From NCBI GenBank assembly GCA_003158295.1, contig PMIP01000059.1, forward strand, positions 31,617 through 88,716: a stretch of 57,100 nt of DNA, written 5' to 3'. Shown piece after piece: positions 2,699 through 31,921 of this stretch. The DNA comes from Chloroflexota bacterium. GTDB lineage: Bacteria > Chloroflexota > Limnocylindria > Limnocylindrales > CSP1-4. Position numbers and translations under genes: made by a program. Within the stretch, counting starts at the first letter, position 1, and every line of letters starts with the position of its first letter. The notes beneath the pieces were generated by a model. That model saw nothing but the letters and a program-made list of their open reading frames with translations, made no database searches and was not told the origin of the DNA.

Positions 2699-4012
2699 GT
2701 GCCAGGTGCCTCGGTGTTTAGCCTCCCCAGTCTCCAGTTCAAGCTCTTCGGGTTCCCGGTCGCAATCGGGCTCGACTTCCTGCTGATCGCTTTCCTGTTT
2801 GGCTCTTTCCTGCCCGGCGAGTACCTGGTCATCTGGGTGGCGATCCTCGCCGGATCGATCCTGATTCACGAGTTGGGTCACGCCTTCGCATTGCGCCGGT
2901 ACGGCATCACGCCCCAGATCCGGCTGTGGGGCATGGGAGGGCTGACCACCTGGGGATTCGAGCTTCCTCCACGGAAGACGATCGTGGTCAGCGCCGCCGG
3001 GCCGTTGCTCGGTGTCGCGATTGGGCTGGCCGCCATGCAGGTGGAGCCCCGGATGCAGGCCGGCTCGACGGCCGAGTGGACGGTCCATATGGTCGTTTTG
3101 ATCAACCTGTACTGGGGACTGCTGAACCTGCTGCCCATCGCCGCCCTGGACGGCGGCAACATCACCACGAGTGCGTTCATGGTGGTGCTGGGGCCGAGGG
3201 GACGGGTGCCGGGGCTCATCTTCGTGGCCCTGTCGAGCCTCGTGATCGCCGCCATCGCCTTTGCGATCGGCTTCGCCTACCTGGCGGTGATCGTTGCGAT
3301 ATTCGCGCTCCTCAACCCAGTGCCCTACGTGGAGCTGCGCCGCATCCTGTCCAGCCGAGCCCACGCCTCGCCTGGACACGCGCCGGCGTCGTCTCGGACG
3401 CGGTCGGGGGACGGGCACTCGGGCGGCCGATCCGTGGCCGCCTCCCCGGCCGGGGCGCGCCGGGTCTTCGGCGAGGCCTACGTGGAGACGCTGGGGGATC
3501 GGGCCCGTGGCGTGGACCTGGACGATCTGGAGACCCGTCCGGCGCCGCTCACCTCGGACGTGGCCACGATGGTGGCGCGCGGCGACGACGCGGGCCTCGC
3601 GGCTCGCCTGACGGCCGAGGAGGACCCGCTCACGGTCCTCGCCATCGTCGCCAGGGTCGTGGACGGCAGGCGGATCGGCGGGGTGCTGAAGATGCTGAAG
3701 CTCGGAGATGGGCGTGGCGCGGATGGGCTGCTCAAGCTGCAGGTCGGGCTCTTCGCGCTCGGTCGGTTCGAGGATTCGATCGGTGCGGCCGGTGCGCTCG
3801 GCGCCGACGGCAGTTCCGCCAGCGCGTTGCTCGTGGCCCGCTGCGGCGCTCGGATGGGGGACCGCAAGCTCGTTCGCCAGGGGCTGGAGCGCGCGGTGGC
3901 ACTCGGCCATGTTTCTCTCTCGGACGCGGCGCTGGGTGACATCGCTCGAATGGGACCGGACGAGCGAGTGGCCCAGCTGCTCACGAGACTGCGGGCGAGC
4001 CAGACCGCCTGA
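2699..4012 (+). CDS. M50-family site-2 metalloprotease with an Ala/Arg-rich C-terminal soluble domain of about 200 aa
   Basis: HELGHAF (HExxH) lies in a TM helix and NLLPIAALDGGN is the second M50 signature. Multiple TM segments. GTG start as in the ORF track; an alternative GTG is at 2714. Confidence 0.85.
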   Translation: MPGASVFSLPSLQFKLFGFPVAIGLDFLLIAFLFGSFLPGEYLVIWVAILAGSILIHELGHAFALRRYGITPQIRLWGMGGLTTWGFELPPRKTIVVSAAGPLLGVAIGLAAMQVEPRMQAGSTAEWTVHMVVLINLYWGLLNLLPIAALDGGNITTSAFMVVLGPRGRVPGLIFVALSSLVIAAIAFAIGFAYLAVIVAIFALLNPVPYVELRRILSSRAHASPGHAPASSRTRSGDGHSGGRSVAASPAGARRVFGEAYVETLGDRARGVDLDDLETRPAPLTSDVATMVARGDDAGLAARLTAEEDPLTVLAIVARVVDGRRIGGVLKMLKLGDGRGADGLLKLQVGLFALGRFEDSIGAAGALGADGSSASALLVARCGARMGDRKLVRQGLERAVALGHVSLSDAALGDIARMGPDERVAQLLTRLRASQTA

Positions 4013-4156
4013 CCGAGTGGCATAGAGTCGAGAACCCGGTGTTCCGAATGGGCGGCCGCTGCTCGCACCACCCAGTTGCGTAGGCCGAGCCGGCTCAACG
4101 CCGCGTGCGATAGTTGTCGCGCGGCACGTTCCCGACATGTCAGCTAGGACGACCCC

Positions 4157-4738
4157 ATGGGCACCCGAATCTCGCATCTACCATTCGTTGCCGGCCTGCT
4201 CGCCTGCGCCGTGGTCATTGCCGGTTGTGGCGCGACCGCCGCGACGCCGACTTTCTCGGATCCAATCCCTGTCGTCGCGGCGCCCACCGTACCCTCGTGG
4301 TTCAACGTCCAGATGACGGACGTGACGACCGGCAAGCCGTTCAAGATCAGTGACTTCTCCGGCAAGGTCGTCCTGGTCGACACCATGGCGACGTGGTGCC
4401 CCACCTGCCAGGGCGAGATGAGCCAGGTCGGGCGGCTGCCCGGTCTCGTCGGCGCCGGCGCCAGCGACCTCGTGACGATCAGCCTCGACGTGGACCCCAA
4501 CGAGGACGCCACGATCCTCAAGAAGTTCGCCGCCGCCAACGGCTTCACCTGGCGGATCGCGGTTGCCCCAATCGAGGTCGGCCGGTTTCTCGAGATGAAC
4601 TACGACCAGCAGTACCTCAACCCGCCGCTTCAGCCGATGCTCTTCATCGACCGCACGGGCGGCGTCTACGGGCTCCCGTTCGGCATCAAGTCGGCCGAGA
4701 GCATCCAGAAGACCCTGGCTCAATACCTGGCCCAATAG
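4157..4738 (+). CDS. Secreted or lipoprotein thiol-disulfide oxidoreductase (TlpA/ResA-like thioredoxin fold)
   Basis: Signal peptide ending LLACAVVIAGCG. WCPTC active-site motif. TlpA-like context (FSGKVVLVDTMATWCPTCQGEM). Confidence 0.85.
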   Translation: MGTRISHLPFVAGLLACAVVIAGCGATAATPTFSDPIPVVAAPTVPSWFNVQMTDVTTGKPFKISDFSGKVVLVDTMATWCPTCQGEMSQVGRLPGLVGAGASDLVTISLDVDPNEDATILKKFAAANGFTWRIAVAPIEVGRFLEMNYDQQYLNPPLQPMLFIDRTGGVYGLPFGIKSAESIQKTLAQYLAQ

Positions 4739-4742
4739 CCAG

Positions 4743-5411
4743 ATGGATGTCGCGCTGACATCTTTCTCCTTCGGTCTGCTGGCCACGACCAGCCCTTGCC
4801 TGCTGCCGTTGTATCCCGGGTTCCTGGCGTACCTGAGCGGGCAGGCCGGATCGGAGCGAGGTCGGCAGCGCTACTTCCTGGGCATCTTCGTGCTCGCCGG
4901 CGTGATGACGATGATGGTCGTCCTGGGGGGCCTGATCGCCCTGCTGGCGGTATCGATCGGCCGGGCGCTGGCGATCCTGATACCCCTGGCCGTTGCCGCG
5001 ATCTTGATCCTGGGCGTGCTGCTTCTCCTGGATCGCAACCCCTTCTACCGGCTGCCCCAGATCAAGGTCCCGCTCCTGCGCCGCCCACTCCTAAACGCTT
5101 ACGTGTACGGGCTGCTGTACGGGCCGATCGCCATGCCGTGCTCCGGTGCGCTCGTCGTCGCCATCTTCGTCTACTCGTTCACGCTCGGCGAAGCGGTAAG
5201 CAAACTCTGGATCTTCCTCTGGTTCGGGCTCGGTTTCGGCGTGCCCCTACTGGCACTCTCCCTTCTCTCCGGGGCCCTGCAGCGCCAGCTGACCCGCTGG
5301 TTCGCGCTCCACAGCCGGGCCATCAACGTCGTCGGCGGCCTGCTGCTGATCGGGACCGCGATCTACGACCTGGCCGCGAACTGGGACGTGCTCGTGCTCT
5401 ACTACACCTGA
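4743..5411 (+). CDS. ccdA: Cytochrome c biogenesis / thiol reductant transfer membrane protein CcdA (DsbD family)
   Basis: LATTSPCLLPLYPGFLAYLSG and GPIAMPCSGALV are the two conserved Cys-containing motifs. Six predicted TM segments. Starts 4 nt after the thioredoxin stop. Confidence 0.85.
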   Translation: MDVALTSFSFGLLATTSPCLLPLYPGFLAYLSGQAGSERGRQRYFLGIFVLAGVMTMMVVLGGLIALLAVSIGRALAILIPLAVAAILILGVLLLLDRNPFYRLPQIKVPLLRRPLLNAYVYGLLYGPIAMPCSGALVVAIFVYSFTLGEAVSKLWIFLWFGLGFGVPLLALSLLSGALQRQLTRWFALHSRAINVVGGLLLIGTAIYDLAANWDVLVLYYT

Positions 5412-5506
5412 TCGAGACGACTTCGCGGCGGAGTACCGGAGGGTCGCTCCTGAGTGGCTGGAGACTCGGGCGGGACGGAACCGCCCGCTGCTTCGTCAGT
5501 CTGTTC

Positions 5507-6073
5507 ATGATGGAAGCGACCGTCGACAGGGGAATTGATGATGTGCTCGAGCAGGTAGGGGAGGCGCGCACGGACGAGCTCGACGAGACCTTCGCCACGC
5601 TCTACCGGGAGCGCTACCGCGATGTGTATCGCTACGCATTGCTGATGCTGAGGCGGGTCGAGGACGCAGAAGACGTCTCCGCCGAAGCGTTCCATCGAGC
5701 CTTCGCGGCCTGGCAAGCCGGCCATGGACCGGAGGGACGGGCCCTGCCGTGGCTGCTGCTCATCACCAGGCGGCTGGTCATCGACCGAACCCGGCGCCGG
5801 CGACTCCTGTCGTGGCTTCCGCTCGCGTCGTTGAGCCCCGCCCACGAGCCTTCCAGAGAGGCCGAGACCGGCCGGACGGAGTTCTGGCTCTGGTTCGAGC
5901 GGTTCGCTCGTGAGCTCTCGCAACGTCAGCGTGAAGTCTTGATCCTGCGCTACCAGCGTGACCTGGACGACGACCAGATCGGCGAGATCTTGGGGATCTC
6001 CGCCTCGGCCGTTCGATCGCTCGTCGCGCGAGCCTGCGCAGCCCTGCGCCGCAACCCGGAGATCTGGCAATGA
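5507..6073 (+). CDS. ECF-type RNA polymerase sigma-70 family factor
   Basis: Region 2 (YRYALLMLRRVEDAEDVSAEAFHRAFAAW, LLLITRRLVIDRTRRRR) and region 4 HTH (LSQRQREVLILRYQRDLDDDQIGEILGISASAVRSLVARA). First in-frame ATG pair is at 5507/5510. The longer track ORF from 4796 overlaps ccdA and is rejected. Confidence 0.85.
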   Translation: MMEATVDRGIDDVLEQVGEARTDELDETFATLYRERYRDVYRYALLMLRRVEDAEDVSAEAFHRAFAAWQAGHGPEGRALPWLLLITRRLVIDRTRRRRLLSWLPLASLSPAHEPSREAETGRTEFWLWFERFARELSQRQREVLILRYQRDLDDDQIGEILGISASAVRSLVARACAALRRNPEIWQ

Positions 6074-7275
6074 GTGAGAATCAGCATTCCGATGACGAGA
6101 TCCTGAATGGCGTGCGCCGCCGATTGGCCGGTGCCGAGCCGCTCATCCCGCAGCCGCCGGCGTTGGGGCCGGCCTTCACCGAGGCTGCCCAGGCGCGCCC
6201 GAGGGTGGTTGTGCGCAGCCGGCTTGGATTGGGCGGCTTCGCGCCGCTGGCTCTGATCGCGGCGCTTGTGGTGGTCGTCGTTGGAGTTGGCATAGGAAGC
6301 CAGACTCTCCAGGGAAATGGAACCGGCGCATTCGCCGGGACTCCAGGGCCCTCCGGATCGCCGGCGTCCCCCAACTACCCTGGGTTCGGCCTTTCCTATC
6401 AGCTGGTGCATCCGGCCGGCACCCAGGTGACCCCCGCCGAATTGGATGCGACCAAGGCGGTCCTGATCAAGCGCGCTGAGTCTTTGGGGCCGACGTCCTA
6501 TTCGGTCAATGAGGCGCCACCGGATGGGATCACGGTCTGGTTGGAAGGCGTCCCCGACACGGCGGAGGTGCGCACACTGATCGGCCAGACCGGACACCTC
6601 GAGTTCGTGCCGCTGCCGCCCGAGACATATGGAACCTCTGGCTCTCCAGGTCAGAAGATGCTGCCGACCACAGGCGAAACGATCGACCCGTCGCTGCCGG
6701 CGCAGTTCACAGGGGCGGACTTGGACCCGAGCCTGGTGTACATGCGCGAGGACACCGCGACGGGCGGATTGGCACTCGAGTTCGGGTTCAAGGAGCCGGC
6801 GGCCTCCGCGCTCGAGACCTGGTCCACGCAGCACGTAAACGACTTCTTCGCGATCGTTCTCGACGGGAAGGTCGTGTCCGTGCCCTACATCAAGTCGACG
6901 ATCATCGGCGGCAAGGGCGAGATCGCGGGCGACTTCACGACGCAAAGCCTCGCGGAGCTGGCCACGGTTCTGCAATCCGGCTGGCTGCCTTACCCGCTTC
7001 TCGGGGGCGAGACCGGGCCCATCGGCGGGCCGGTGGAGTCGGGCGTGCCGCTCCCTTCGGGCTTGGCGATCCCTTCGGACGTGCCGATGCACTCGGGCGC
7101 GCCGATGGAGTCGGGCGGGGCGATCCACTCGGCCGCGCCGATGGAGTCGGGCGTTGCGCTCCCTTCGGGCGTGCCGACTGGAACGTGCGGGCCGAGTGAG
7201 ATGTGCGTGCCGACTGGATCGGGTGGACCGAGCGCCATCGAGTCACCGCCGGCCGCCTCCAGCCCCCAGCTCTAG
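6070..7275 (+). CDS. Single-pass membrane protein with a SecD P1-head-like extracytoplasmic domain and a PxxSG-repeat tail; positional anti-sigma factor candidate
   Basis: ATGA overlap with the sigma stop (6070-6073). One TM (FAPLALIAALVVVVVGVGIG). VLIKRAESLGPTSYSVNEAPPDGITVWLEGVPDTAEVRTLIGQTGHLEFVPL and LDGKVVSVPYIKSTIIGGKGEIAGDFTTQSLAELATVLQSGWLPYPL resemble the E. coli SecD periplasmic P1 segments as I recall them ([30 protein letters not shown]...LEFRLV). No 12-TM SecDF core. Confidence 0.7.
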   Translation: MSENQHSDDEILNGVRRRLAGAEPLIPQPPALGPAFTEAAQARPRVVVRSRLGLGGFAPLALIAALVVVVVGVGIGSQTLQGNGTGAFAGTPGPSGSPASPNYPGFGLSYQLVHPAGTQVTPAELDATKAVLIKRAESLGPTSYSVNEAPPDGITVWLEGVPDTAEVRTLIGQTGHLEFVPLPPETYGTSGSPGQKMLPTTGETIDPSLPAQFTGADLDPSLVYMREDTATGGLALEFGFKEPAASALETWSTQHVNDFFAIVLDGKVVSVPYIKSTIIGGKGEIAGDFTTQSLAELATVLQSGWLPYPLLGGETGPIGGPVESGVPLPSGLAIPSDVPMHSGAPMESGGAIHSAAPMESGVALPSGVPTGTCGPSEMCVPTGSGGPSAIESPPAASSPQL

Positions 7276-8651
7276 GCCCTCTCGACGAGGGAGGGGCTTT
7301 CCGAAGCCACCGTGGTAGCCGCCAGCGTCCCCTCCGCGTCCGCGACCGCGGCGGCCACTCGGTCGGTCCCGCGGAACCAGGTCCAGAGCAGGGCCGTGGC
7401 GGTCGTGTACAGCACGATGATGGTGACGAAGTCCACTGCGTAGCCGGCGGTGAATCCGAGCGACGCCTGGAGAGCGCCGTAGTACGGCGACGCGATCGCC
7501 CACCCGAGCGACCACAGCATCGTCATTCCGGCTGCCAGCGTGGCTCGCTCCGCCGGGGAGACGCGCTCCATCGCGAACGCGTCGAAGATCGGGCTGCCCG
7601 CGTTCATCAGCGAGTTGCGCACGGCCAGGGCGATGATCACGGTCCACAGCATCGGGGAGAAGCCGAGGACGACGAGGAACGGGATGCTGGCCCCCTGCAC
7701 CAGCACGATCGATCCGATGCGGCCGAATCGGCTGGCGAGAGCCGGCTGAGCCAGGATCGCGGCCGCGGTGCCGAGGCTGGTCACGGCGAAGATCACGTTC
7801 ACTTCTGTGAGACCCAGGCCGAACTTGTTCTCGATGAAGACGTTCAGGAAGGGGATCAGCTGGCCGGCACCCAGGGACGTCAGGAATCCCGGCAGAAGCA
7901 GCCGGAAGAAGAGGCGCTTATCCAGGATGACGATGCCGAATCGGCTCGCCCCGGCGGCCGGCGCTCGACCGGCCGCCGGCCTGTCGCTGGTGAGCAGCCA
8001 CACGGTCCCCAGGGAAAGGACACCCAGGATCGCCACTCCGGACAGGAGGATCTGATAGGGCGCCGCGGCTGAACCGAGGTTCAGGCGAGAGGCGATTTCG
8101 GGGGCCAGTGCTCCACCCGCGAGGGCGGCCACCAGGCCCGTAAGAAACCCAATGGCGGACCAGATGGCGAAGTACTCGTTGCGCTGGTCCGGCCGGGTGT
8201 GCTCGGCGATGAACGGGATCTGGACCACGCTGACTGCCATGGACCCGGCGCCGAGCGCGGCTACACCCACGAACAGCAGCGGCAACTGGCCTGGCAGAAA
8301 CGCGAGTAGCGCGACCGCCACCAGGACCATGCCCGCGGCCATCACGCTGCGTCTTCCGAACCTGTCGGAGAGCGCGCTGGCCGGGAGGGCCGTCAGGACG
8401 CCTGCCAGCGAGTAGGCAGCCAGCAGCCAGCCGATCGTCCACTTCAATCCGATCGACTCCAGGTAGAGGTTGAAGTCGATGAAGTAGAGGCTGATCGCCG
8501 CCCCAAAGACGACCGTGGTCAGCAGGAAGATCCGGGCGTCACGGCTGAAGCCGGTGAAGCTGCGGATGTACCTCGCGATTGCGCCAGCCACCGTTCCGGC
8601 AGACCTCTCGCTCAGCGGGCCGGATCGAGAACGTTGCGCTCTTCCTCGCAC
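7272..8651 (-). CDS. MFS transporter
   Basis: About 12 TM segments. MFS loop motif LSDRFGRRSVM between TM2 and TM3. An alternative GTG start at 8591 would remove the overlap with the upstream mini-ORF. Confidence 0.85.
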   Translation of the reverse strand: MRGRAQRSRSGPLSERSAGTVAGAIARYIRSFTGFSRDARIFLLTTVVFGAAISLYFIDFNLYLESIGLKWTIGWLLAAYSLAGVLTALPASALSDRFGRRSVMAAGMVLVAVALLAFLPGQLPLLFVGVAALGAGSMAVSVVQIPFIAEHTRPDQRNEYFAIWSAIGFLTGLVAALAGGALAPEIASRLNLGSAAAPYQILLSGVAILGVLSLGTVWLLTSDRPAAGRAPAAGASRFGIVILDKRLFFRLLLPGFLTSLGAGQLIPFLNVFIENKFGLGLTEVNVIFAVTSLGTAAAILAQPALASRFGRIGSIVLVQGASIPFLVVLGFSPMLWTVIIALAVRNSLMNAGSPIFDAFAMERVSPAERATLAAGMTMLWSLGWAIASPYYGALQASLGFTAGYAVDFVTIIVLYTTATALLWTWFRGTDRVAAAVADAEGTLAATTVASESPSLVERA

Positions 8652-8827
8652 AGGCTACGCCCGACGACGATCAGGAACGCTCCTATCCGGAGGTGGAGTC
8701 CACGGATCCGGTACGTCCTTGAGCCCGCTCCCTTACGGCTCATGCGGTAGGCGGCGGCCTCGGCGCGGAGCTCCGCATGCCGCTGGGCTATGTACGTTGA
8801 TCGCTGCTCCGGCGTGTCAGGCCACAT
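8612..8827 (-). CDS. Mini-protein (71 aa), Arg/Ala-rich helix followed by an RxxGxxLRIGxxL hydrophobic tail
   Basis: ATG is preceded by GGAGG at 9-nt spacing (ctGGAGGactctaccaATG). Lies between the ArsR-type regulator and the MFS gene. Resembles a second mini-ORF at 22104-22298. Confidence 0.5.
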   Translation of the reverse strand: MWPDTPEQRSTYIAQRHAELRAEAAAYRMSRKGAGSRTYRIRGLHLRIGAFLIVVGRSLCEEERNVLDPAR

Positions 8828-8922: not shown

Positions 8923-10011
8923 TCAGTGCGCCAGGTAGGCGCGAAGCTCCACGCCGGCTTCGTCGGCGCGGTCGTGGCGGAGGCTGTAGTAGGTCATGTT
9001 GCCCTCGTTGGTCATCGTGACCAGGCCGGCGCTGCGGAGCACGGCCAGGTGATGCAGGATCGTGGGCTTGCGCAGATCCAGCTCGTTCGCGATCTCCGTC
9101 AGGTAGCGGTCACCTTCGGCCAGGAGCTTCAGGATGCGCAGGCGGCTCTCGTCGCCCAGGGCGCGGTAGAGGCGAATGGTCGAATTGGGTGGAGTCAGTC
9201 GGTCCGCCGATCCGAGCGACGAGTCCGCGATTGGGTAGCAGATCAGCTGCACGTCGCCGACCTTGGTCAGCGAGTTGTACGGGCGGCCGAAGTAGCTGGG
9301 GGTCAGGACTATGCGGCGGATGCGCTGCTCGGGTATGACTCGGACCCCATTTGTCGCCCGCTCGATGAACCCGAGGGGGTCGCCGACGATGTCGTCGCCA
9401 CGGCGGCCGGCCACGTCGCGCTCCAACATTCGACCGATGCGGGTCTCGATCGTCTCGTAGCGCGGCAGCCAGAACTCGACGATGCGCCGGACCGCCAGGG
9501 TCATGTCGGCGATTGGTCCAGCGAGGACGGCATGGCCTTTGGTCGATTCGAGCCGGGCCTGGAGCTCGACCAAGGCCTCCTGATCGCCATCTACTGCCCG
9601 GCGAGTGAGCGCGCCTAGATCCGCGTCTTCGAGCAGTTCGCCCGCCATGATCTCGGTCAGATCTCGGTCGGAAAGCGCGTCGATGGCTTCCACGACGTCG
9701 CGGGCGGTGCGAATCTCCGGCCTGCCGACGAGCATGCGGCTGATCTCGAGGACGAAGCCACCGCAGGCACCGACGCATTCGTCTCCGGTGGTCTCGGCCT
9801 TGAGGGCCGCGCGCGACTCTTCCAGCCAGCGCTGGTCCTCTGCCAGGAGCTCGTTGGCCTCGCCGCAGTCATCACAGGCGCTGGCCAGGAAGTCGTAGCC
9901 GGTTCGGACATCAAGCTCAACGACCGGAAGCTGGGCAGCCGCGATCCCCGGCCGGACGAGGCCGCTCTGTCTCTGGGGATTGGCTCGGCTGGGATTCCGG
10001 GTCGCTGCCAT
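8923..10011 (-). CDS. ArsR/SmtB-family winged-helix regulator with an N-terminal domain of about 270 aa and unknown function
   Basis: C-terminal IRLYRALGDESRLRILKLLAEGDRYLTEIANELDLRKPTILHHLAVLRSAGLV is a classic ArsR HTH. I do not recognise a motif in the N-terminal part. Confidence 0.8.
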   Translation of the reverse strand: MAATRNPSRANPQRQSGLVRPGIAAAQLPVVELDVRTGYDFLASACDDCGEANELLAEDQRWLEESRAALKAETTGDECVGACGGFVLEISRMLVGRPEIRTARDVVEAIDALSDRDLTEIMAGELLEDADLGALTRRAVDGDQEALVELQARLESTKGHAVLAGPIADMTLAVRRIVEFWLPRYETIETRIGRMLERDVAGRRGDDIVGDPLGFIERATNGVRVIPEQRIRRIVLTPSYFGRPYNSLTKVGDVQLICYPIADSSLGSADRLTPPNSTIRLYRALGDESRLRILKLLAEGDRYLTEIANELDLRKPTILHHLAVLRSAGLVTMTNEGNMTYYSLRHDRADEAGVELRAYLAH

Positions 10012-13681: not shown

Positions 13682-13744
13682 GGCGGGTCGGCCTGCCTCC
13701 CAAGCGTTCGATCGGCCACCTCCGGCGGCGCCGCTTCCTGTAGA

Positions 13745-15067
13745 GTGCGGGCCATGGACAGCACCACGAGCGGGCTCGGCTCAGAGGGGCCCGCCAACCT
13801 GCCGCCGGGCTTTGACGCGTCCGCGACGACGCCGGTGGATCGCGCCACGGCCGTCGCGGCGCTCAGCCAGGCCGACGGCCTGATGGAGCAGAGTGAGCCG
13901 GAGCAGGCGCTCGCCCTGTACGCCAGAGCGGCGGGGACGGCCGATCGCGACGTCTCGGCCGCCGGCCACTACGGGATGGGCAACGCCCTGTACCGGATGG
14001 ACCGCGAGGGCGAGGCGCGCCAGGCCTGGGAGCGTGCCACCGGTCTCGGCGAGACTCCCGTGGCGTATCGGGCCTGGCGTCAGGTGGCCGCGGCCCTGGT
14101 CCGCGAGGGAAACCTGCGCGGCGCCCTGGACGCGTACCGGCAATGCGAAAAGCGCGCGCCGCGCGAGGACCGCGCCGAGATCGCGTCTCGGTTGGGCTGG
14201 CTGAGCAAGGAAGTCGGCAACACCGGCGCCGCGACCAAGTACTTCGCCCGCAGCCGCGGTGACGCGGCGCCGCCGTTCATGACGTACCTGATCATCGCCG
14301 TCACGGTGGTGGCGTCGATATCGGCCCTGTCGGATACCAGCGGCAGCCTCGGGGGTCAGCTCGAGCTGGACAAGCTGGGCATCGCGCACGGCGAGCTCTA
14401 CCGACTCTTCAGCGTCACCCTGGTCCACGGCAGCTACATCCACCTGGCCTTCAACATGTACGCGATGTGGTACGCGGGGCAGCTCGTCGAGCGCATGTAC
14501 GGGTCGTGGTTGCTGCTGGCGTTCTACGTGATTTGCGCGGCGGGAGGGTCGATCCTCAGCTACGCGTTTGGATCCATCGTGCCCAGTGTCGGGGCTTCGG
14601 GGGCGATCTTCGGGCTCTTCGGCGTCGTCCTCGTGGCGACTCGGTTCCACCGCGCGATCCTGGATCAGCAATCGCGGATGATCGCGTCGCAGGTCGGCCT
14701 ACTGATCGTGTTGAACCTGATCCTCGGCTTCTCCGGTGTCCTGAACGTCGACAACTACGCTCACGTCGGAGGCCTTCTGGCGGGACTCTGGTTGGCCCTG
14801 GTCATCGCCCCGGCACAGGTGCCGACCCTCGCGTCGCTATGGCAGACCCCCCGCGGCGGCAGTGGCGGAGCTCGGATACTCGCCATCCGCGTTCTGGGCG
14901 TGGGCGCCCTGATCGCGGTTCTGGGGGTGGGCGTCGCGATAGGCACGAGCCGGTGGCAGGGTGACCCGGTCTATCGGCACTTCTACGGTGCCGCCGGCAC
15001 GGCCGTCGATCGATCAGAGGCGGTCACCGCGCCTGAGCTGCCGAGCGTTTCTCTGACAATCCGGTAG
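13745..15067 (+). CDS. Rhomboid-family intramembrane serine protease with an N-terminal TPR-like domain
   Basis: LVHGSYIHLAFNMYAMW, the catalytic GASGAIFGLFG and HVGGLLAG motifs. N-terminal cytoplasmic TPR-like repeats of about 170 aa. An alternative ATG is at 13754. Confidence 0.85.
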   Translation: MRAMDSTTSGLGSEGPANLPPGFDASATTPVDRATAVAALSQADGLMEQSEPEQALALYARAAGTADRDVSAAGHYGMGNALYRMDREGEARQAWERATGLGETPVAYRAWRQVAAALVREGNLRGALDAYRQCEKRAPREDRAEIASRLGWLSKEVGNTGAATKYFARSRGDAAPPFMTYLIIAVTVVASISALSDTSGSLGGQLELDKLGIAHGELYRLFSVTLVHGSYIHLAFNMYAMWYAGQLVERMYGSWLLLAFYVICAAGGSILSYAFGSIVPSVGASGAIFGLFGVVLVATRFHRAILDQQSRMIASQVGLLIVLNLILGFSGVLNVDNYAHVGGLLAGLWLALVIAPAQVPTLASLWQTPRGGSGGARILAIRVLGVGALIAVLGVGVAIGTSRWQGDPVYRHFYGAAGTAVDRSEAVTAPELPSVSLTIR

Positions 15068-23592: not shown

Positions 23593-24732
23593 TCAGGGAG
23601 CGGTCTCCGACAGTTGAGCTGTTCTACCGCCTCCGGTCGCCGGGAGCACGAGCTCGTCGGTCCTCGGCACCGGGAAATGCACCGGCGGGCCTGAGCGGCT
23701 GCTCTCGCGGATGATGAGCTCCGGCCGCAGCAACGTCATCTCGGGGAGCGGTTCATGGGAGCGTCTGGTCTGGCGCGACCTCGTGATCTGCTGGTCTATC
23801 GCCTTGACGGCAAGGACTCCCGCATCGGCCAGCGGTTGATAGACGGTCGTCAAAGGAGGCCAGAAATGCGACGCCTCGGCGATGTTGTCCACGCCGACCA
23901 CGGACAGCTCTTCGGGAACTCTCCGGCCGATCCGGTGGGCAGCATGCAGGACGCCGAGTGCCATCTGGTCGTTGCTGGCGAAGATGGCGTCTATGTCGGG
24001 GCAGGCTTCCAGTAATCGATACAGCCCCTGCTCTCCGCTGGAGACCGTCCAGTCGCCTTCGACGATCAGGCTCTCCTCGACCTGCCGTCCAGTCGCCTCG
24101 ATCGTCTGTCGCCAGCCGCCGAGGCGCTGCTGGGCCTCCCACCAGGTCAGTGGGCCGGTGACGATGCCCAGGTGCCGAACACCGCCGGCGATCAGATGCT
24201 CGGTCGCCAGGCAGCCGATGGCGGTGTTGTCGATGGCGATGGAAGGCAGGTGGGTCTTGCCGAACATCCCTCCCACCAGCATCACCGGGAAGGACAATTC
24301 GGCGCCCTTCGCTTGCGACCAGGCCCGGTTGTTGCTGACCTCCGGAACCGCCCAGATGACCCCGTCGACCTGGCGCGAGTGCAGGCTGTGGAGGACCCTC
24401 GCTACATCGTCAGTCTCAGGCTCGAGAATCAGGTTGAGCGAGATCCCGTAACCCATCTCGGCGGCCTGGCGCTCTATGGCAGTCACCACTCGCGACGGGC
24501 CGAAGTATTCGAGCCCGTACGCCACCACTCCCAGAACGTGGCTTCGGCCCTGCGTCAGGCCGCGGGCGAACATGTTGGGCGTGTAGCCGGTCTCCAGGAT
24601 GATCTCCTGGACGCGAGCGAAGGTCTCGGGCGCCACGTCCGGCCGGTTATTGATGACCCGGGACACGGTCTGAGTCGACACGCCGGCCGCCGCCGCCACG
24701 TCGTGGATGGTCGGCCGTCGCCCTTTGGCCAT
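23593..24732 (-). CDS. LacI-family transcriptional repressor (probable arabinose-locus regulator)
   Basis: N-terminal HTH PTIHDVAAAAGVSTQTVSRVINN and a periplasmic-binding-protein-like core. The ATG at 24732 has GGAGG at 9 nt; the in-frame ATG at 24741 abuts the SD. Confidence 0.9.
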   Translation of the reverse strand: MAKGRRPTIHDVAAAAGVSTQTVSRVINNRPDVAPETFARVQEIILETGYTPNMFARGLTQGRSHVLGVVAYGLEYFGPSRVVTAIERQAAEMGYGISLNLILEPETDDVARVLHSLHSRQVDGVIWAVPEVSNNRAWSQAKGAELSFPVMLVGGMFGKTHLPSIAIDNTAIGCLATEHLIAGGVRHLGIVTGPLTWWEAQQRLGGWRQTIEATGRQVEESLIVEGDWTVSSGEQGLYRLLEACPDIDAIFASNDQMALGVLHAAHRIGRRVPEELSVVGVDNIAEASHFWPPLTTVYQPLADAGVLAVKAIDQQITRSRQTRRSHEPLPEMTLLRPELIIRESSRSGPPVHFPVPRTDELVLPATGGGRTAQLSETAP

Positions 24733-24826
24733 CTGCGGCATCCTCCTCTAGCGGCGAGAGCAGGTCACTGAGGGCAGCAGCGTCAGACTTCGAGTATTGA
24801 CTGCCGTCTGACACGCATGCTAGCCT

Positions 24827-24864
24827 TGTTATCGCTCCCGTTACCGTTACCGGGAACGATAACA
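24827..24864. promoter_or_regulatory. Inverted repeat TGTTATCGCTCCCG-N10-CGGGAACGATAACA (candidate LacI operator)
   Basis: Arms of 14 bp with one mismatch, in the divergent lacI/ytfQ region. Lies immediately downstream of a possible TTGACT-N18-TAGCCT promoter (24796-24825). Confidence 0.45.
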
Positions 24865-25404
24865 TTGGGGAGAGAAGCCCGCAACACCAGATGCAGGGCA
24901 AGGAGAGCCCCATCGGGTAGAGAACTCGACCGAGCCGAGGTCGACGCGCGTTATGGAGCAGCCCGTTGAAGGGTCATCGGACTGGGGACGCGTAGACGGA
25001 GACCGAAGCTCGGCGTTACCGGTGCCGAGGCATTCGACGGCTTCTCGAATGGCGTCGGGGCAAGGGTCCGTCGTATATCTAGTCGCCCTGCGGAGCATCG
25101 CAATGGCATTGCCCAGCGCTGGTCCACATAGGTCGCGAACGTCGGCTCCATATCGGAGCGAATGAATTGGACTAGGACTCGCTGCACGGACACGTCCGCC
25201 TGTGTCCGTGCGGCGAGATCCTGAGGCCGCTGGCCGGCTTGGAGGAGGTGCCGATGGCGTCAGAGCCCATCTGACACGAATGGAGGCGATGAACCTGGCA
25301 CGAGTCGGAGACTCGAAGTCCAGCGAGGCAGTGGAGGAACTGCCCAATCGCACGAGGGCAGGACGAATCTCACTACTGCTCGTAGCAGACACGGAGATCA
25401 AACA

Positions 25405-26415
25405 ATGATGATGTCTCGAATGCTCCGGATCGCCGCGGCTATCGCAGTCTCTGGGGCCCTTGCCGCTTGCTCGGGGTCTGCCGCATCTCCGAGCCCGAAG
25501 GTGTACACGTACAAGGACATGACGGTCGGGTTCATCCAGACCGGGTCCGAGTCCGGCTGGCGAGCCGCGAACACCTCTTCCTTCAAGGAGACGGCAACCG
25601 CGGACGGCATCAACCTCAAGTTCTACGACTCCCAGAACAAGATCGAAAACCAGATCACCGCGTTCAACCAGTACATCCAGGACCCGGCTGTCAACGTGAT
25701 CATCCTGGCCGCCGTCGGCACCACCGGCTATGACGACGTCCTCAAGGCCGCCAAGGCCGCCAACAAGGTCGTGGTCATCGAAGACCGCCGCATCGAGGCC
25801 GATGCGAGCTTGTACTACACGTACATCGGCTCGGACTTCGACAAGGAAGGCAACAACGGCGCTGCCGCCATGTGCACTGCCCTCAAGGGCATGAGCGGCG
25901 CCAACGTCGTCGAGATCGGCGGCGATCAGGCCGCTTCGGCCGCCATCGACCGCGCCAAGGGCTTCCGCGAAGGCATCGCCAACTGCACTGACGAGAGCAT
26001 CAAGATCCTCGACACCCAGTCCGCCCCCGCATGGGACCCGGTTCAGGGCAAGGCCATCATGGAGTCCGACCTGAAGAAGTACTCGGGCCAGATCCAGGGC
26101 GTTTACGCGCACAACGACGAGCTGGCTATCGCGGCCATCCAGGCCATCGACGCAGCCGGTCTCAAGGCCGGCACCGACGTCAAGGTCATCGGCTTCGATG
26201 CCACCGCCGACGGCTTCAAGTACCTCATCTCGGGTGAGATGTTTGCTGACATCGAGTGCAACCCGCTCCTCGCCCCCCAGGTCTACAAGGCCGCTCTTGA
26301 CGCCCTCAACGGCGTCACCGGTCAGGCTGCCTGGGTCCCCTCGCAGGAGGGCCAGTTCTTCGCCTCCCAGGGCGCCGATGCCCTCAAGGCCATCCTCGCC
26401 ACTCGCAAGTACTAG
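25405..26415 (+). CDS. ytfQ: Sugar ABC transporter substrate-binding lipoprotein, YtfQ-like (furanose-binding family)
   Basis: Lipobox ALAACS. VGFIQTGSESGWRAAN and VYAHNDELAIAAIQAIDAAGLKAG closely parallel E. coli YtfQ (VGFSQVGSESGWRAAE, VYAHNDDMVIGAIQAIKEAGLKPG). Confidence 0.85.
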   Translation: MMMSRMLRIAAAIAVSGALAACSGSAASPSPKVYTYKDMTVGFIQTGSESGWRAANTSSFKETATADGINLKFYDSQNKIENQITAFNQYIQDPAVNVIILAAVGTTGYDDVLKAAKAANKVVVIEDRRIEADASLYYTYIGSDFDKEGNNGAAAMCTALKGMSGANVVEIGGDQAASAAIDRAKGFREGIANCTDESIKILDTQSAPAWDPVQGKAIMESDLKKYSGQIQGVYAHNDELAIAAIQAIDAAGLKAGTDVKVIGFDATADGFKYLISGEMFADIECNPLLAPQVYKAALDALNGVTGQAAWVPSQEGQFFASQGADALKAILATRKY

Positions 26416-26469
26416 CAACTCGCCAGGCACGTTGACTCGTCGGAGTCGACGTATCGAGTGACTCGAGCA

Positions 26470-26506
26470 GGGGAGAAGCAGCCCTCGCTGCTTCTCCCCT
26501 TGTTTG
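26470..26506 (+). terminator. Strong hairpin with T-rich tail after the binding-protein gene (intra-operon attenuator/terminator)
   Basis: ggggagaagcagc-cctc-gctgcttctcccc is a 13-bp perfect stem, followed by ttgtttg. Confidence 0.6.
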
Positions 26507-26679
26507 AACGGCCCGTGTCAGGCACGATTGGTTCTGGCCGCATGGCCGTGGACGCAGGGCCCATCCGTCCCAAACTCTGAGCCTCCGCGTGCGAGCCCGC
26601 CCGATACCGCACGGAGTGAATTCGGTCCCGGCCACGCGCATCGTTGTTCTGCTGAGCCGCACGATCAGAAGGTGACTCA

Positions 26680-28203
26680 ATGCCAGAATCCGACCGGAAC
26701 ATCGTCGTAATGAAGGGCATAGACAAGTCCTTCCCCGGCGTGCATGCCCTCCAGAACGTGGACTTCTCCCTGGCGAAGGGCGAGATCCACGCCCTCGTCG
26801 GCGAGAACGGAGCCGGGAAGTCGACCCTGATCAAGATCCTCACGGGCGTCGACCGCGCGGACAGGGGCACGATCGAGCTAGACGGGCGCGTCGTGGTGGT
26901 CCGGTCACCGCTTCAGGCGCAGGAACTCGGCATCAGCACGGTGTACCAGGAAGTCAACCTGTGCCCGAACCTCACTGTGGCCGAGAACATCCTCATCGGC
27001 CGGCAGCCCAGCCGCTTCGGCGTCAGCGTCGACTGGAAGAAGCTCAACACCCAGGCGCGCGAGTACCTCAAGCAGCTCGAGGTCCAGATCGACGTCACCA
27101 GGCCCCTCGGCTCCTACTCGGTCGCGATCCAGCAGATGGCGGCCATCGCCAGGGCGCTCGTAGTCTCCAACGCGAAGGTGCTGATCCTCGACGAGCCGAC
27201 ATCAAGCCTCACCGCCCATGAGACGGCGCAGCTCTTCAAAGTGATGAGGAAGCTGAAGAGCGAAGGCATCGCGGTGGTCTTCATCACGCACTTCCTGGAC
27301 CAGGTCTACGAAGTGTCCGACCGAGTCACCGTCCTGAGAAACGGAGCCCTCGTTGGGACTTATCCAACGGCGTCGCTTGCGAGGCTGGAGTTGATCCGCC
27401 TGATGCTGGGCCGCAGCATCACGGCCCTCGACGACATGTCGGCCCACAAGATCGAGAGCAGCCAGCACATCAAGACCGATGCTCTCCTGAAAGCCGACGA
27501 GCTGGGGCTCTCCAACTCGATCGACCCTTTCACCCTGACGCTGCACGCGGGCGAAGTTGTAGGGCTCGCCGGGCTTCTCGGTTCGGGTCGAACGGAAGTC
27601 GCGAACCTCCTCTTTGGAGTCGACAAGCCGGATGCGGGCTCGCTCACCATGGACGGCAAGCCGGTAACGGACTTCACGCCGGCGGGCTCAATCCATCGCG
27701 GCATCGCCCTCTGCCCTGAGGATCGCAAGGTCGAAGGCATCGTCGCGGACCTAAGCGTTCGCGAGAACATCATCCTGGCCATGCAGGCGGGCCTCGGCTG
27801 GTTCCGGAGAATCGGCACGAAGGAGCAGTACGAGATAGCGGACAAGTACATCAAGCTCCTGAACATCAGCACGCCAACGGCGGATCAGCAGATCAAGAAC
27901 CTCAGTGGCGGCAACCAGCAGAAGGTCATCCTGGCCCGCTGGCTGGCCGCTAACCCGCGGCTTCTGATACTCGACGAGCCCACGCGCGGCATCGACGTCG
28001 GCACCAAGGCGGACATCCAGAAACTAGTCTTGTCGCTGGCCGAGGAAGGCAAGTCGTGCATCTTCATCTCATCCGAGTTGGATGAAGTGCTGCGAACCAG
28101 CCATCGCATCGTCGTCATGCGAGACCGGTCGAAAGTGACCGAGTTCTCCGGCCAAGTCGATGAGCAGGACATCATGCAAGCGATCGCGGGAAGTGCGTCA
28201 TGA
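26680..28203 (+). CDS. ytfR: Sugar ABC transporter ATP-binding protein with duplicated ATPase domains (YtfR-like)
   Basis: Two ABC cassettes: GENGAGKST with LILDEPTS, then LSGGNQQKVILARWL with LILDEPTRGID. 507 aa. Confidence 0.85.
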   Translation: MPESDRNIVVMKGIDKSFPGVHALQNVDFSLAKGEIHALVGENGAGKSTLIKILTGVDRADRGTIELDGRVVVVRSPLQAQELGISTVYQEVNLCPNLTVAENILIGRQPSRFGVSVDWKKLNTQAREYLKQLEVQIDVTRPLGSYSVAIQQMAAIARALVVSNAKVLILDEPTSSLTAHETAQLFKVMRKLKSEGIAVVFITHFLDQVYEVSDRVTVLRNGALVGTYPTASLARLELIRLMLGRSITALDDMSAHKIESSQHIKTDALLKADELGLSNSIDPFTLTLHAGEVVGLAGLLGSGRTEVANLLFGVDKPDAGSLTMDGKPVTDFTPAGSIHRGIALCPEDRKVEGIVADLSVRENIILAMQAGLGWFRRIGTKEQYEIADKYIKLLNISTPTADQQIKNLSGGNQQKVILARWLAANPRLLILDEPTRGIDVGTKADIQKLVLSLAEEGKSCIFISSELDEVLRTSHRIVVMRDRSKVTEFSGQVDEQDIMQAIAGSAS

Positions 28204-29288
28204 ACGGCTCGTTCTCCAGGACCTGGGGCAGGCTCACGGAGAGCATGCTCTTCTTGCCCACGGCCGCCTTGTTGCTGATCCTGATCGCCGACTTCTTCCT
28301 GATCCCCGGCTTCTTCTCGATTCAGCTGAAAGGCGGCCATCTCTACGGCAACTTGATCGACATCCTGGTCCACGGATCGCCCACGATGATCCTGGCAATG
28401 GGAATGACGCTCGTGATCGCCACAGGCGGAGTCGATCTCTCCGTCGGCGCCATCATGGCCATTACATCGTCCGTGGCGTGCGTCATGATTAATCCGACCA
28501 TCGTTGGGATGAACCTCACCGACCCGCAGAAGTTCATCAACGATCCCCAGTACACCTGGGCTCCATTGTGGGCGGTGATCGTCGTGCCGATGGTCATAGC
28601 CACGCTTTGTGGGTTATGGAATGGTGTGCTCGTCGCCTACGGGCGGATCCAGCCGATGGTCGCAACGCTCGTTCTGATGATCGCCGGTCGAGGGATCGCC
28701 CAGCTGATAACGAACGCCATCCAGATCATCATCTTCAACGACACGTACGCCTTTATCGGGAACGGCTACATCCTCCTGCCGTTCTCGTTGTATGTGGCAG
28801 TCGCGGTGTTCATAGGAGCCTGGCTCTTGACACGTCGGACGTCGATAGGCGTCTTCATCGAGTCGGTCGGGATCAACTACCGATCGAGCTTCTATAGCGG
28901 CATTAACGAGAAGAAGATCAAGCTCTTCGCGTATGGTTTCTGTGGCTTCTGCGCGGGCATTGCTGGGCTCATCGTGACGTCCAACATTCGTACGTCGGAT
29001 GCGAATCAGATCGGCATGTACACAGAATTGGATGCGATCCTGGCCGTCGTAATCGGCGGGACTCTTCTCGGAACCGGGGGTCGCTTCTCGTTGATGGGGA
29101 GCGCGATCGGGGCCCTGGTTCTGCAGACGACGATCACGTCGATGCTGTCGTTCGGCGTTCCGGCGAGTGCGGTCATCGCAGTCAAGGCTTTGGTCGTGAT
29201 TGCCGTGGTCCTCCTCTATGCCGAGCAGGTCAAGGGCTTCGTTCGTAGGCTGGGCAGCTCGTCCTTGCGGAGGGAGACAGCCCAATGA
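28200..29288 (+). CDS. ytfT: Sugar ABC transporter permease (YtfT-like, BPD_transp_2 family)
   Basis: ATGA overlap with the ATPase gene. GGVDLSVGAIMA motif. About 10 TM segments. Confidence 0.85.
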   Translation: MNGSFSRTWGRLTESMLFLPTAALLLILIADFFLIPGFFSIQLKGGHLYGNLIDILVHGSPTMILAMGMTLVIATGGVDLSVGAIMAITSSVACVMINPTIVGMNLTDPQKFINDPQYTWAPLWAVIVVPMVIATLCGLWNGVLVAYGRIQPMVATLVLMIAGRGIAQLITNAIQIIIFNDTYAFIGNGYILLPFSLYVAVAVFIGAWLLTRRTSIGVFIESVGINYRSSFYSGINEKKIKLFAYGFCGFCAGIAGLIVTSNIRTSDANQIGMYTELDAILAVVIGGTLLGTGGRFSLMGSAIGALVLQTTITSMLSFGVPASAVIAVKALVVIAVVLLYAEQVKGFVRRLGSSSLRRETAQ

Positions 29289-30880: not shown

Positions 30881-31830
30881 TGAAAGGCAATTCCGGGATG
30901 AGTGCTCGAAAGACGCTGGCCGCAGTCATCGCGCTCGGTCTTGCCGTGACCGGCTGCGACTATATCGTGCCGCCGATCGACTTCAGCACGGCCACCCCGG
31001 TCCTGTCGAGTCAGGGCTGGTCGGGGTTCGTGACGAACGTTGCCGACGCGAACGGCGCCCTACACGTCGACCTTTCCATCAAGAACGACACGAACGATTG
31101 GAGCGCGATGGACGTAGGCTCCAGCGTCGCCAAGGTGACGGACGCGGCCGGCAAGACGAGTAGCTGCGCCACGGTTTTCGTCGGGACGTCCACCTTCGTC
31201 AACAATGGTGGCTGGTTCCTGGCGCCCGGCTTCCAGATGAAGGGGTATACCGGAGGAAGCGTCGCCAAACCAACGAAACAGATGCTCTACGTGGAGTGCG
31301 CTGGCGTCGCGAAGGCCGCTGGCGAGAAGCTGGCTGTGGACTACGCGTACATCACGGGCGCGTTCAACTACTACACGGCCTCACAGGTCTCTCACAAGAC
31401 GTTGGAGTTGGATCTCGACAAGGTCGTCTCCGATGCCAAGTACCCGGTGGGTGACAAGGTTGCGGGCCTCAAGATCGAGACCTCCAGCTCGGTCATACCT
31501 GCTATCAACGACTGCACCGTGCAGCTGACGGGCGTCAAGAGGACGGATACAGGATTCGAGTTCAGCTGGGAGAGCACGAATCCCGGCAAGGACCCAGCGT
31601 ACGTCCACATCGGCCAGCCTCCGGTCCTCGGCGCTGATGGGGTCTTGTACGGGGCGTATGTGAGCCCGCATCTGTCTAATGCCCCCATCACGCCGAACGG
31701 AGGCAAGGCCACCTGGACAACAACGGCCTCGGTCCCGACGGATGTGAGCGGCTTCTACATCCTTCTCCCAGTGGAGACGAAACAGCAGAAGTACTTCGTG
31801 GACCACGTCGTCGACATTACCGACAAGTGA
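30880..31830 (+). CDS. Lipoprotein of unknown function (two beta-rich halves, possibly Ig-like)
   Basis: Lipobox LAVTGC (signal MSARKTLAAVIALGLAVTGC). The ATG at 30880 overlaps the yjfF stop by 1 nt; an alternative ATG is at 30898. I recognise no catalytic motif. Confidence 0.7.
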   Translation: MKGNSGMSARKTLAAVIALGLAVTGCDYIVPPIDFSTATPVLSSQGWSGFVTNVADANGALHVDLSIKNDTNDWSAMDVGSSVAKVTDAAGKTSSCATVFVGTSTFVNNGGWFLAPGFQMKGYTGGSVAKPTKQMLYVECAGVAKAAGEKLAVDYAYITGAFNYYTASQVSHKTLELDLDKVVSDAKYPVGDKVAGLKIETSSSVIPAINDCTVQLTGVKRTDTGFEFSWESTNPGKDPAYVHIGQPPVLGADGVLYGAYVSPHLSNAPITPNGGKATWTTTASVPTDVSGFYILLPVETKQQKYFVDHVVDITDK

Positions 31831-31921
31831 CCTTGCGTCCCGGTCGATTGGGCAAAGTGCGTTCGCTCGTATCACGTGTGGCGCGACCTGAACGCGCCGT
31901 GCCTCGGGAGGTAGCTGGGGA

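Follow-up and report, generated by a model that had tools for sequence, protein, structure and literature searches.

The window analysed here is a stretch of 57,100 nucleotides (57.1 kb) of contig PMIP01000059.1, from a Chloroflexota bacterium of the class Limnocylindria; positions below are those of the window, and features lie on its forward strand unless stated otherwise. Its subject is the gene at 6070-7275, which encodes a 401-residue membrane protein and directly follows, with a short overlap, a gene for an extracytoplasmic function (ECF) sigma factor. The protein carries the P1 domain of the protein-export factor SecD behind a single predicted transmembrane (TM) helix. We read it as a non-canonical anti-sigma factor of the upstream ECF sigma, with the SecD-type P1 domain as its sensor, a reading to which comparative sequence analysis leads us to assign a probability of about 0.65. 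If so, part of the secretion machinery has probably been recruited as a signal receptor.

A SecD-type P1 domain on a single-pass membrane protein

From its N-terminus the protein comprises a cytoplasmic segment (aa 1-52; 6070-6225), a single TM helix rich in Gly, Pro and Ala (aa 53-76; 6226-6297; GLGGFAPLALIAALVVVVVGVGIG), a poorly conserved linker, an extracytoplasmic P1 domain made up of base and head (aa 105-315; 6382-7014), and a disordered tail rich in Pro, Ser and Gly (aa 316-401; 7015-7275). A hydropathy scan detects one TM segment, with windows of 19 residues that start at aa 50-64; outside it the maximum is 1.24. In the AlphaFold2 (AF2) model the TM segment is the helix at aa 57-74. 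The predicted topology is that of a single-pass protein with its N-terminus inside and its C-terminus outside.

A preliminary description of this DNA, made from the sequence alone, had recognised in the ectodomain two segments resembling the head of SecD P1. The head is indeed present, but it does not stand by itself: the two segments correspond to the base (SecD_1st) and to the end of the head, and the whole of P1 is therefore there. Pfam places SecDF_P1_head (PF22599) at aa 227-307 (E = 2e-16; 60.3 bits against a cutoff of 27) and SecD_1st (PF21760) at aa 126-180 (1.5e-5; 24.7 bits, slightly below its cutoff of 27), and both domains are found in most orthologues. The NCBIfam models of SecD and SecDF align within aa 116-318 with scores far under their cutoffs, TIGR01129 for example reaching 89 bits, against a cutoff of 244, over P1 only. 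A phmmer search of the PDB retrieved the isolated P1 domain of Thermus SecDF (3AQO; 8.8e-11, aa 122-318). The AF2 model, built on an alignment of 107 homologues, has a predicted local distance difference test score (pLDDT) above 90 over aa 105-315, and the structural comparison that the preliminary description had proposed, Foldseek with this model against SecDF structures, returned 3AQO at E = 1.6e-14 with a template-modelling score of 0.73, normalised to the 222-residue target structure; 3AQO, 5XAP and 5YHF all scored at E ~1e-14. The domain is also under purifying selection: the ratio of nonsynonymous to synonymous substitution rates (dN/dS), determined region by region in pairwise comparisons of the window with four orthologues of the shorter, DsbA-less form described below, is 0.22-0.48 for P1. 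The presence of a complete P1 domain, base plus head, is confirmed by these results.

The remainder of SecD is missing, as had been supposed: Pfam, phmmer, AF2, Foldseek, hydropathy and a hidden Markov model (HMM) of the SecD core agree on a P1 fold in a single-pass protein devoid of the SecDF core. PF02355 (SecD_SecF core) has no match in the protein, and the SecD-core HMM finds no SecD membrane core anywhere in the 57.1 kb window. A SecD or SecDF translocase subunit has a core of the RND type with six or twelve TM helices; this protein has one TM helix and, lacking TM2-6, the SecF half and the SecD_SecF core, cannot couple to the proton-motive force.

The sigma gene and the cytoplasmic motif that accompanies it

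The gene upstream (5507-6073) encodes a 188-residue sigma factor consisting of regions sigma2 and sigma4 only. Pfam reports Sigma70_r2 (4.5e-10), Sigma70_r4 (4.7e-12) and Sigma70_r4_2 (4.1e-11), with no region 3, and the general ECF model TIGR02937 matches at 73.5 bits, above its cutoff of 42.9. The best NCBIfam match is SigE-fam_strep (TIGR02983; 1.9e-26, under cutoff), and relatives in the PDB are SigW, SigE and SigL. Its dN/dS is 0.13-0.18. The TGA stop codon of the sigma gene overlaps the ATG of the P1 gene at 6070 as ATGA, an arrangement shared by all 11 other orthologous operons with a readable junction. The preliminary description had placed the P1 gene in the anti-sigma position, and this gene order holds in the window and in every orthologue examined.

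An ECF-type promoter-like motif, CGGGACG-N16-CGTCA, lies at 5471-5498, its -10 element ending 9 nt before the sigma ATG. It recurs at the same distance and with conserved sequence in 14 of 14 orthologous loci examined, whether the gene upstream is that of the M50 protease, ccdA or carB. The strict motif has one match in the window, that of the operon itself, even when three mismatches are allowed (0.09 expected). It looks like an autoregulated ECF promoter, and the spacing between its -10 element and the sigma ATG, on which this point depends, suggests a leaderless or near-leaderless mRNA. Loosened to GGGAC-N16-18-CGTC the motif matches four times in the window, against 6.1 expected, and at 68% GC is uninformative; among the secD loci fetched from genomes that also carry a P1 gene of the window family, the loose motif is present in L042 and absent from L023, L056 and L057. 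A scan of 4000-8800 for sigma-70 promoters and terminators yielded nothing useful.

The organism is an uncultured inhabitant of peat and permafrost. Window DNA is well represented in 20 metagenome runs from peat and permafrost (91-100% of sampled words), and metatranscriptome contigs from peat and wetland match the sigma and P1 genes at 100% identity. Two of these contigs span the junction between the genes (5938-6118 and 6044-6183). From these matches the locus appears to be expressed in situ, and the two genes are probably co-transcribed. By the overlap of the reading frames and these junction-crossing contigs, the P1 gene thus has the linkage to an ECF sigma gene by which anti-sigma factors are recognised.

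The part of the protein that lies in the cytoplasm, in the predicted topology, is its best-conserved part. The N-terminal segment contains an amphipathic helix (aa 8-21 in the AF2 model; DDEILNGVRRRLAG), the motif EPLIPQPP and a basic juxtamembrane stretch, RVVVRSR; its consensus across orthologues, DDEILxGVRRRL..EPLIPxPP, is referred to here as the N-motif. Column conservation is 0.79-0.80 in the N-motif, against 0.67 in P1 and 0.33-0.45 in the linkers, and dN/dS of the N-terminus is 0.23-0.35. The HxxxCxxC zinc motif, which marks the ZAS subgroup of class I anti-sigma factors, had been reported missing, and aa 1-52 in fact contain no cysteine at all.

Motif and sigma gene occur together. A sigma gene lies directly upstream in 23 of 23 loci with the N-motif (22 fetched loci and the window). 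Where the sigma gene is lacking, so is the motif: L093 has the same slot, with ccdA upstream and genes for a major facilitator superfamily (MFS) transporter and an ArsR-like protein downstream, but no sigma gene, and in its P1-DsbA protein a Pro-rich, zinc-ribbon N-terminus replaces the N-motif; the slot in L092 holds a bare TM-P1 protein, with no sigma gene, M50 gene or N-motif. In L091 an extra P1 gene without the motif lies downstream of the sigma-coupled one. These comparisons make the N-terminus the putative sigma-binding part of the protein. As a separate observation, the P1 genes that lack a sigma gene or come second share an element, GCTAGACTC, upstream (L093, ~1240-1250; L091, ~3945-3955); it resembles a housekeeping -10 (TAGACT), which suggests ECF-independent expression of these paralogues.

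Relatives, a lost DsbA domain and recurrent sigma-P1 pairing

The preliminary description called the P1 domain an orphan, which, in the sense of a one-off, is not borne out: the protein is one of a sizeable family in Limnocylindria, with about 20 full-length orthologues. On many contigs they lie in a syntenic block that reads carB / M50 / [redoxin-ccdA] / sigma / P1 gene / MFS (reverse strand) / small open reading frame (ORF; reverse) / ArsR-like (reverse) / M16 / M16. The description had also named a disrupted secD as a finding that would count against its interpretation. Besides the lack of a core in the window, intact secD genes exist elsewhere in the same genomes: in PLMA01 (P1 gene in L013, secD in L023), in CAWFBR01 (L014 and L057, on one contig of 969 kb) and in DAHXON01 (L019 and L042). 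On both grounds a broken secD is rejected as its origin.

An exhaustive HMMER search of 1.84 billion representative sequences gave 3136 matches at E<=1e-3, and the named sources of P1 relatives are all Limnocylindria or Chloroflexota. Custom HMMs sorted 139 of the best 150 of these matches by architecture. The N-motif of the window family, which we call type A, was present in 34 of the 139: 18 with N-motif and P1, 13 with N-motif, P1 and DsbA, and three with two P1 domains. True SecD accounted for 13, and a further six without the N-motif were P1-DsbA (three) or double-P1 proteins (three). The other 86 were P1-only forms, including some with zinc-ribbon N-termini and long forms with a C-terminal P1; we do not count them as orphan P1 proteins because many start with a TM helix at residue 1-10 and could be truncated calls of SecD. 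Two side observations concern these relatives. The type A proteins P0115 (776 aa), P0116 (623 aa) and P0169 (580 aa) carry two tandem P1 domains behind the N-motif, with DsbA in addition in P0115 and P0169. In a subgroup of single-pass P1 proteins, P0052, P0072, P0154, P0157, P0166, P0167 and P0172, the N-motif is replaced by an N-terminal zinc ribbon (CxxC..CxxC) with a long cytoplasmic region rich in Pro, Gly and Tyr.

More divergent orthologues in the P1 slot are longer, 530-600 aa, and have after P1 a DsbA-like Thioredoxin_4 domain complete with CxxC, a second Cys pair and a cis-Pro loop. They include P0023-P0044 (the domain scoring 4.9e-25 in P0024) and the proteins of L006, L007 and L009. 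A DsbA-like thioredoxin domain (PF13462 / PF01323) is absent from the window protein by both Pfam and BLASTP. In BLASTP against the fusion protein P0023, aa 1-333 match residues 1-334 and aa 324-401 match residues 508-566: the DsbA domain (P0023 335-507) is thus precisely missing, and the tail of the window protein is the old post-DsbA tail.

That tail had been described as an imperfect array of PxxSG repeats, and the repeats are real. Tandem Repeats Finder reports a period of 18 nt, one hexapeptide, with 8.6 copies and 69% matches at 7024-7177, as well as periods of 36 and 54 nt at 7018-7182. With dN/dS of 0.74-0.99 the array is almost unconstrained and is best regarded as a near-neutral remnant; pLDDT over the tail is below 50. 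It also contains an 18-residue insertion (aa 366-383; 7165-7218; PTGTCGPSEMCVPTGSGG) that is specific to the window, being absent from all aligned orthologues, and within which lie the only two cysteines of the protein.

Forms with and without DsbA are interleaved in a neighbour-joining tree, which suggests, tentatively and from that tree only, an ancestral DsbA domain with more than one loss. The best explanation of these sequence comparisons is an ancestral type A protein organised as N-motif, TM helix, P1, DsbA-like oxidoreductase and tail rich in Pro and Ser, from which the lineage of the window lost the oxidoreductase.

Type A is not the only pairing of this kind. In type B, found in L074, L079, L082 and L087 (~4460-6000 or the equivalent), a different ECF sigma gene is coupled by ATGA to that of a single-pass P1 protein of 320-325 aa; the pair adjoins uvrC and lies ~2 kb upstream of the true secD. 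(The P1 gene of L074 is frameshifted in a long-read metagenome-assembled genome.) Type C (L094, 2435-4515) and type D (L095, 602-2142) are further ATGA-coupled pairs in unrelated contexts, with TGAACC-N16-CGTC promoters. The sigma factors of these other types are only 27-30% identical to that of the window. The P1 domains, in turn, resemble SecD more than they do one another: type A P1 is 45% identical to the SecD protein P0045, type B P1 49% identical to the SecD of its own locus in an alignment that includes TM1, and the type D protein P0256 72% identical to the SecD encoded on its own contig of 2.6 Mb, against 30-42% between sigma-linked types. We therefore read the pattern as at least three independent secD duplications in Limnocylindria, each giving rise to a sigma-coupled single-pass P1 protein; this count, like that of the DsbA losses, is derived from the neighbour-joining tree and BLAST identities. 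Duplication of the 5' part of a Limnocylindria secD is the best explanation for the P1 module of the window as well.

A related arrangement with another ectodomain occurs in L057 (806-2843), where an ECF sigma gene related to those of types B, C and D is coupled to that of a 494-residue single-pass protein. The N-terminus of this protein is similar in style; its ectodomain differs, with repeated W..TDG..W motifs (propeller-like), no Pfam match and a C-terminal tandem repeat of 18 residues. Anti-sigma factors typically combine a constant cytoplasmic part with exchangeable sensors, and the L057 protein fits this modular pattern.

Upstream of the sigma gene of the window, an M50-family intramembrane metalloprotease of 437 aa is encoded at 2699-4012 (Pfam Peptidase_M50, 5.6e-10). 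Its translation contains HELGH and NLLPIAALDG, the motifs of site-2 proteases (HExxH and NxxPxxxLDG), making it a candidate site-2 protease for the sigma/P1 system. Its gene is upstream of the sigma gene in most orthologous loci; in the rearranged locus L016 it lies downstream of the P1-DsbA gene and so has stayed linked, in line with regulated intramembrane proteolysis. The genes that separate M50 from sigma are those of a TlpA/ResA-like redoxin lipoprotein with the active-site motif WCPTC (4157-4738) and of a CcdA/DsbD_TM protein (4743-5411), both identified by Pfam and NCBIfam. Besides the window, L009, L010 and L093 have this pair, and L001-L008 lack it; the two genes provide the context of a thiol-reducing pathway, and their membership of the sigma/P1 system is uncertain. 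A thiol-reducing pair adjoins a protein family whose ancestral form appears to have carried DsbA.

Other features of the window lie further away. A rhomboid intramembrane serine protease with an N-terminal tetratricopeptide-repeat region is encoded ~6 kb downstream of the operon (13682-15067), with a counterpart in the corresponding position of L006; after M50 it is the second intramembrane protease in the neighbourhood. On the reverse strand, between the MFS transporter gene and the ArsR-like gene, an ORF of 71 aa without a Pfam match (8612-8827) has counterparts of 69-79 aa called at the same position in L001, L004, L009, L091, L092 and L093. The ArsR-like gene itself (8923-10011, reverse strand) encodes a protein of 362 aa with an ArsR-type helix-turn-helix at the C-terminus only (aa 287-332) and an uncharacterised N-terminal region of ~280 aa; its synteny is kept in almost all loci. 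Finally, GC content falls to 0.60-0.63 at 24000-32000, from 0.66-0.72 elsewhere, over a LacI regulator and a sugar ABC transporter (binding protein, ATPase and permeases), a region that may have been acquired horizontally.

Mode of action, rival readings and significance

The P1 domain of SecDF contacts unfolded preproteins as they emerge, and an anti-sigma factor that used it as a sensor could work as follows. At rest the N-terminal amphipathic helix and the EPLIPxPP segment would hold the sigma factor at the membrane. P1, deprived of the proton-driven core, would be a passive binder that signals how much non-native polypeptide is being exported or what state the translocon exit is in; its ligand might alternatively be a component of the translocon. 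Engagement of P1 would expose the protein to site-1 cleavage, after which the Gly/Pro-rich TM helix would be cut by the neighbouring M50 site-2-type protease; the sigma factor so freed would then act at the GGGAC-N17-CGTC promoter and transcribe, as a minimum, its own sigma/P1 operon, predicted to be leaderless. The orthologues that retain DsbA are probably also translocon-proximal thiol oxidoreductases, and for them a dual role, as enzyme and anti-sigma factor, is plausible.

Several of these elements have counterparts in known systems. The P1 domains of SecD and SecDF (Thermus thermophilus 3AQO and 3AQP; Deinococcus 5XAM, 5XAN and 5XAP) have the same base-plus-head fold over ~210 residues, at 24-26% identity, and like that of the window protein they directly follow an N-terminal TM helix and face outward; the window protein differs in its conserved cytoplasmic motif and in being encoded with an ECF sigma factor rather than with secF or yajC. 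Regulated intramembrane proteolysis acts on several single-pass ECF anti-sigma factors, among them RseA (cleaved by RseP), RsiW and RsiV (by RasP) and mycobacterial RskA, RslA and RsmA (by Rip1). The window protein resembles the RseA/RsiW/RskA type in that its gene is directly downstream of, and translationally coupled to, that of an apparently autoregulated ECF sigma, in its predicted N-in/C-out topology, in having an extracytoplasmic domain of ligand-binding type, and in the linked M50 gene; it departs from it in a cytoplasmic part of 52 aa with one predicted helix, no match to an anti-sigma-domain family and no zinc motif. E. coli sigmaE, which with DegS and RseB senses unfolded outer-membrane proteins, and B. 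subtilis CssRS, which senses secretion stress, share the proposed logic, detection of non-native exported protein outside the membrane followed by induction of a response. Their components are unrelated to those described here, where an element of the export machine itself would serve as receptor. In the DsbA-bearing orthologues, the domain after P1 is that of the actinobacterial-type membrane-anchored DsbA-like oxidoreductases (Thioredoxin_4 / DSBA), which the window protein lacks.

The comparison is least comfortable at the N-terminus. Class I anti-sigma domains are cytoplasmic four-helix domains of ~80-100 aa, detectable with profiles; the cytoplasmic part here is 52 aa long and has no Pfam match. 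NepR is an anti-sigma domain of class II, and CnrY works with a periplasmic sensor, CnrX, having no sensor domain of its own. Class II domains, such as CnrY, consist of two helices in fewer than 50 aa (PMC7406223). The window protein is compatible with a class II-type peptide in length, as its putative sigma-binding segment would be even shorter, but it offers a single confident helix, and the PDB profile search found no sequence similarity to that class.

These and other observations weigh against an anti-sigma function. The N-terminal 84 aa, cytoplasmic part and TM helix together, match no Pfam anti-sigma family at E<=10, and a profile of the N-terminal 52 aa, run against the PDB, finds no solved structure and no anti-sigma relative; with ~30 conserved residues and one confidently predicted helix, the segment is less than a class II domain. 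The ectodomain evidently has a function of its own, as the sigma-less P1 and P1-DsbA variants of L092 and L093 show. Three of the fetched loci, L011, L017 and L019, lack M50. Within the window, the promoter-motif search yields no regulon member besides the operon itself. The metatranscriptome contigs are sparse and assembled, and DNA carry-over is possible. Lastly, everything described here of type A derives from a single class of uncultured bacteria, within which conserved synteny is in part a matter of shared ancestry.

More tentative than the anti-sigma reading itself, and in our estimate somewhat on the doubtful side, is a wider form of it: that P1 is an autonomous client-binding module, repeatedly made the receptor of ECF anti-sigma factors by at least three secD duplications and serving a pathway that responds to secretion load or unfolded exoproteins, and that the ancestral type A protein was at the same time a DsbA-type oxidoreductase whose occupancy by substrate would gate the sigma factor.

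The main competitor, because the sigma-less variants show that P1(-DsbA) has its own function, is an effector role: the protein would be a membrane-anchored extracytoplasmic holdase or foldase beside the Sec translocon, and the sigma factor, controlled elsewhere, would do no more than switch it on. Emerging chains would be held by P1 and, in orthologues, oxidised or isomerised by the fused DsbA, and the window copy would be a DsbA-less, chaperone-only version. Such a role accords with the catalytic features of the DsbA-like domain in same-slot orthologues, with the redoxin/CcdA pair inserted next door, with retention of the ectodomain where the sigma gene is missing (L093, L092) and its tandem duplication in L091, and with an N-terminus that matches no known anti-sigma domain. 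It leaves unexplained why conservation peaks in the cytoplasmic motif and why this motif is present only with the sigma gene, why several unrelated ECF sigma genes are each translationally coupled to that of an independently derived single-pass P1 protein, and why DsbA was repeatedly lost while N-motif and P1 were kept. We consider it unlikely as the whole account, though effector and anti-sigma roles are not mutually exclusive.

Less likely again is a role as positive or accessory partner of the sigma factor, or as a translocon-docking decoy whose P1 would bind SecYEG, SecF-P4 or YidC rather than substrates and so report or modulate the occupancy of SecDF. Sigma-linked P1 domains are closest to SecD P1, up to 72% for the same-contig copy, which is compatible with competition for the same partners, and type B retains homology to SecD TM1; recent duplication would explain this similarity equally well, and there is no direct evidence for any of the partners. 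The idea of a secD remnant, whether fragment or pseudogene left by disruption, or of a chance resemblance, has shared P1 sequence as its sole attraction and can be dismissed, given the missing core in 57 kb, the intact secD genes elsewhere and the ~20 full-length orthologues, and it is opposed as well by P1 dN/dS of 0.2-0.5, the confident fold and transcription in situ.

Signalling by ECF sigma and anti-sigma factors is well known; new here are the proposed sensor domain, the shortness of the N-terminal motif and the descent from a P1-DsbA form. In full-text searches of the literature no precedent came to light, whether for SecD P1 in a protein other than SecD or SecDF, for its fusion to DsbA or to a sigma-linked N-terminus, or for its use in an anti-sigma factor. 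That the P1 head grips emerging polypeptides is an idea drawn from work on complete SecDF; a natural stand-alone P1, soluble-facing and selected repeatedly, would be an independent argument for P1 as a self-sufficient binding module, and a convenient minimal object on which to measure P1 binding. ECF signalling would gain a very short N-terminal motif together with a new type of sensor. A recognisable class I anti-sigma domain is encoded near about one third of ECF sigma factors (PMC7406223). The comparative evidence in the present case is unusually clean, in that the motif comes and goes with the sigma gene and the pairing of sigma with P1 has several independent origins. It points to a response to secretion or oxidative-folding stress in Limnocylindria, an abundant, uncultured class of peat and soil for which, to our knowledge, no such pathway has been described.

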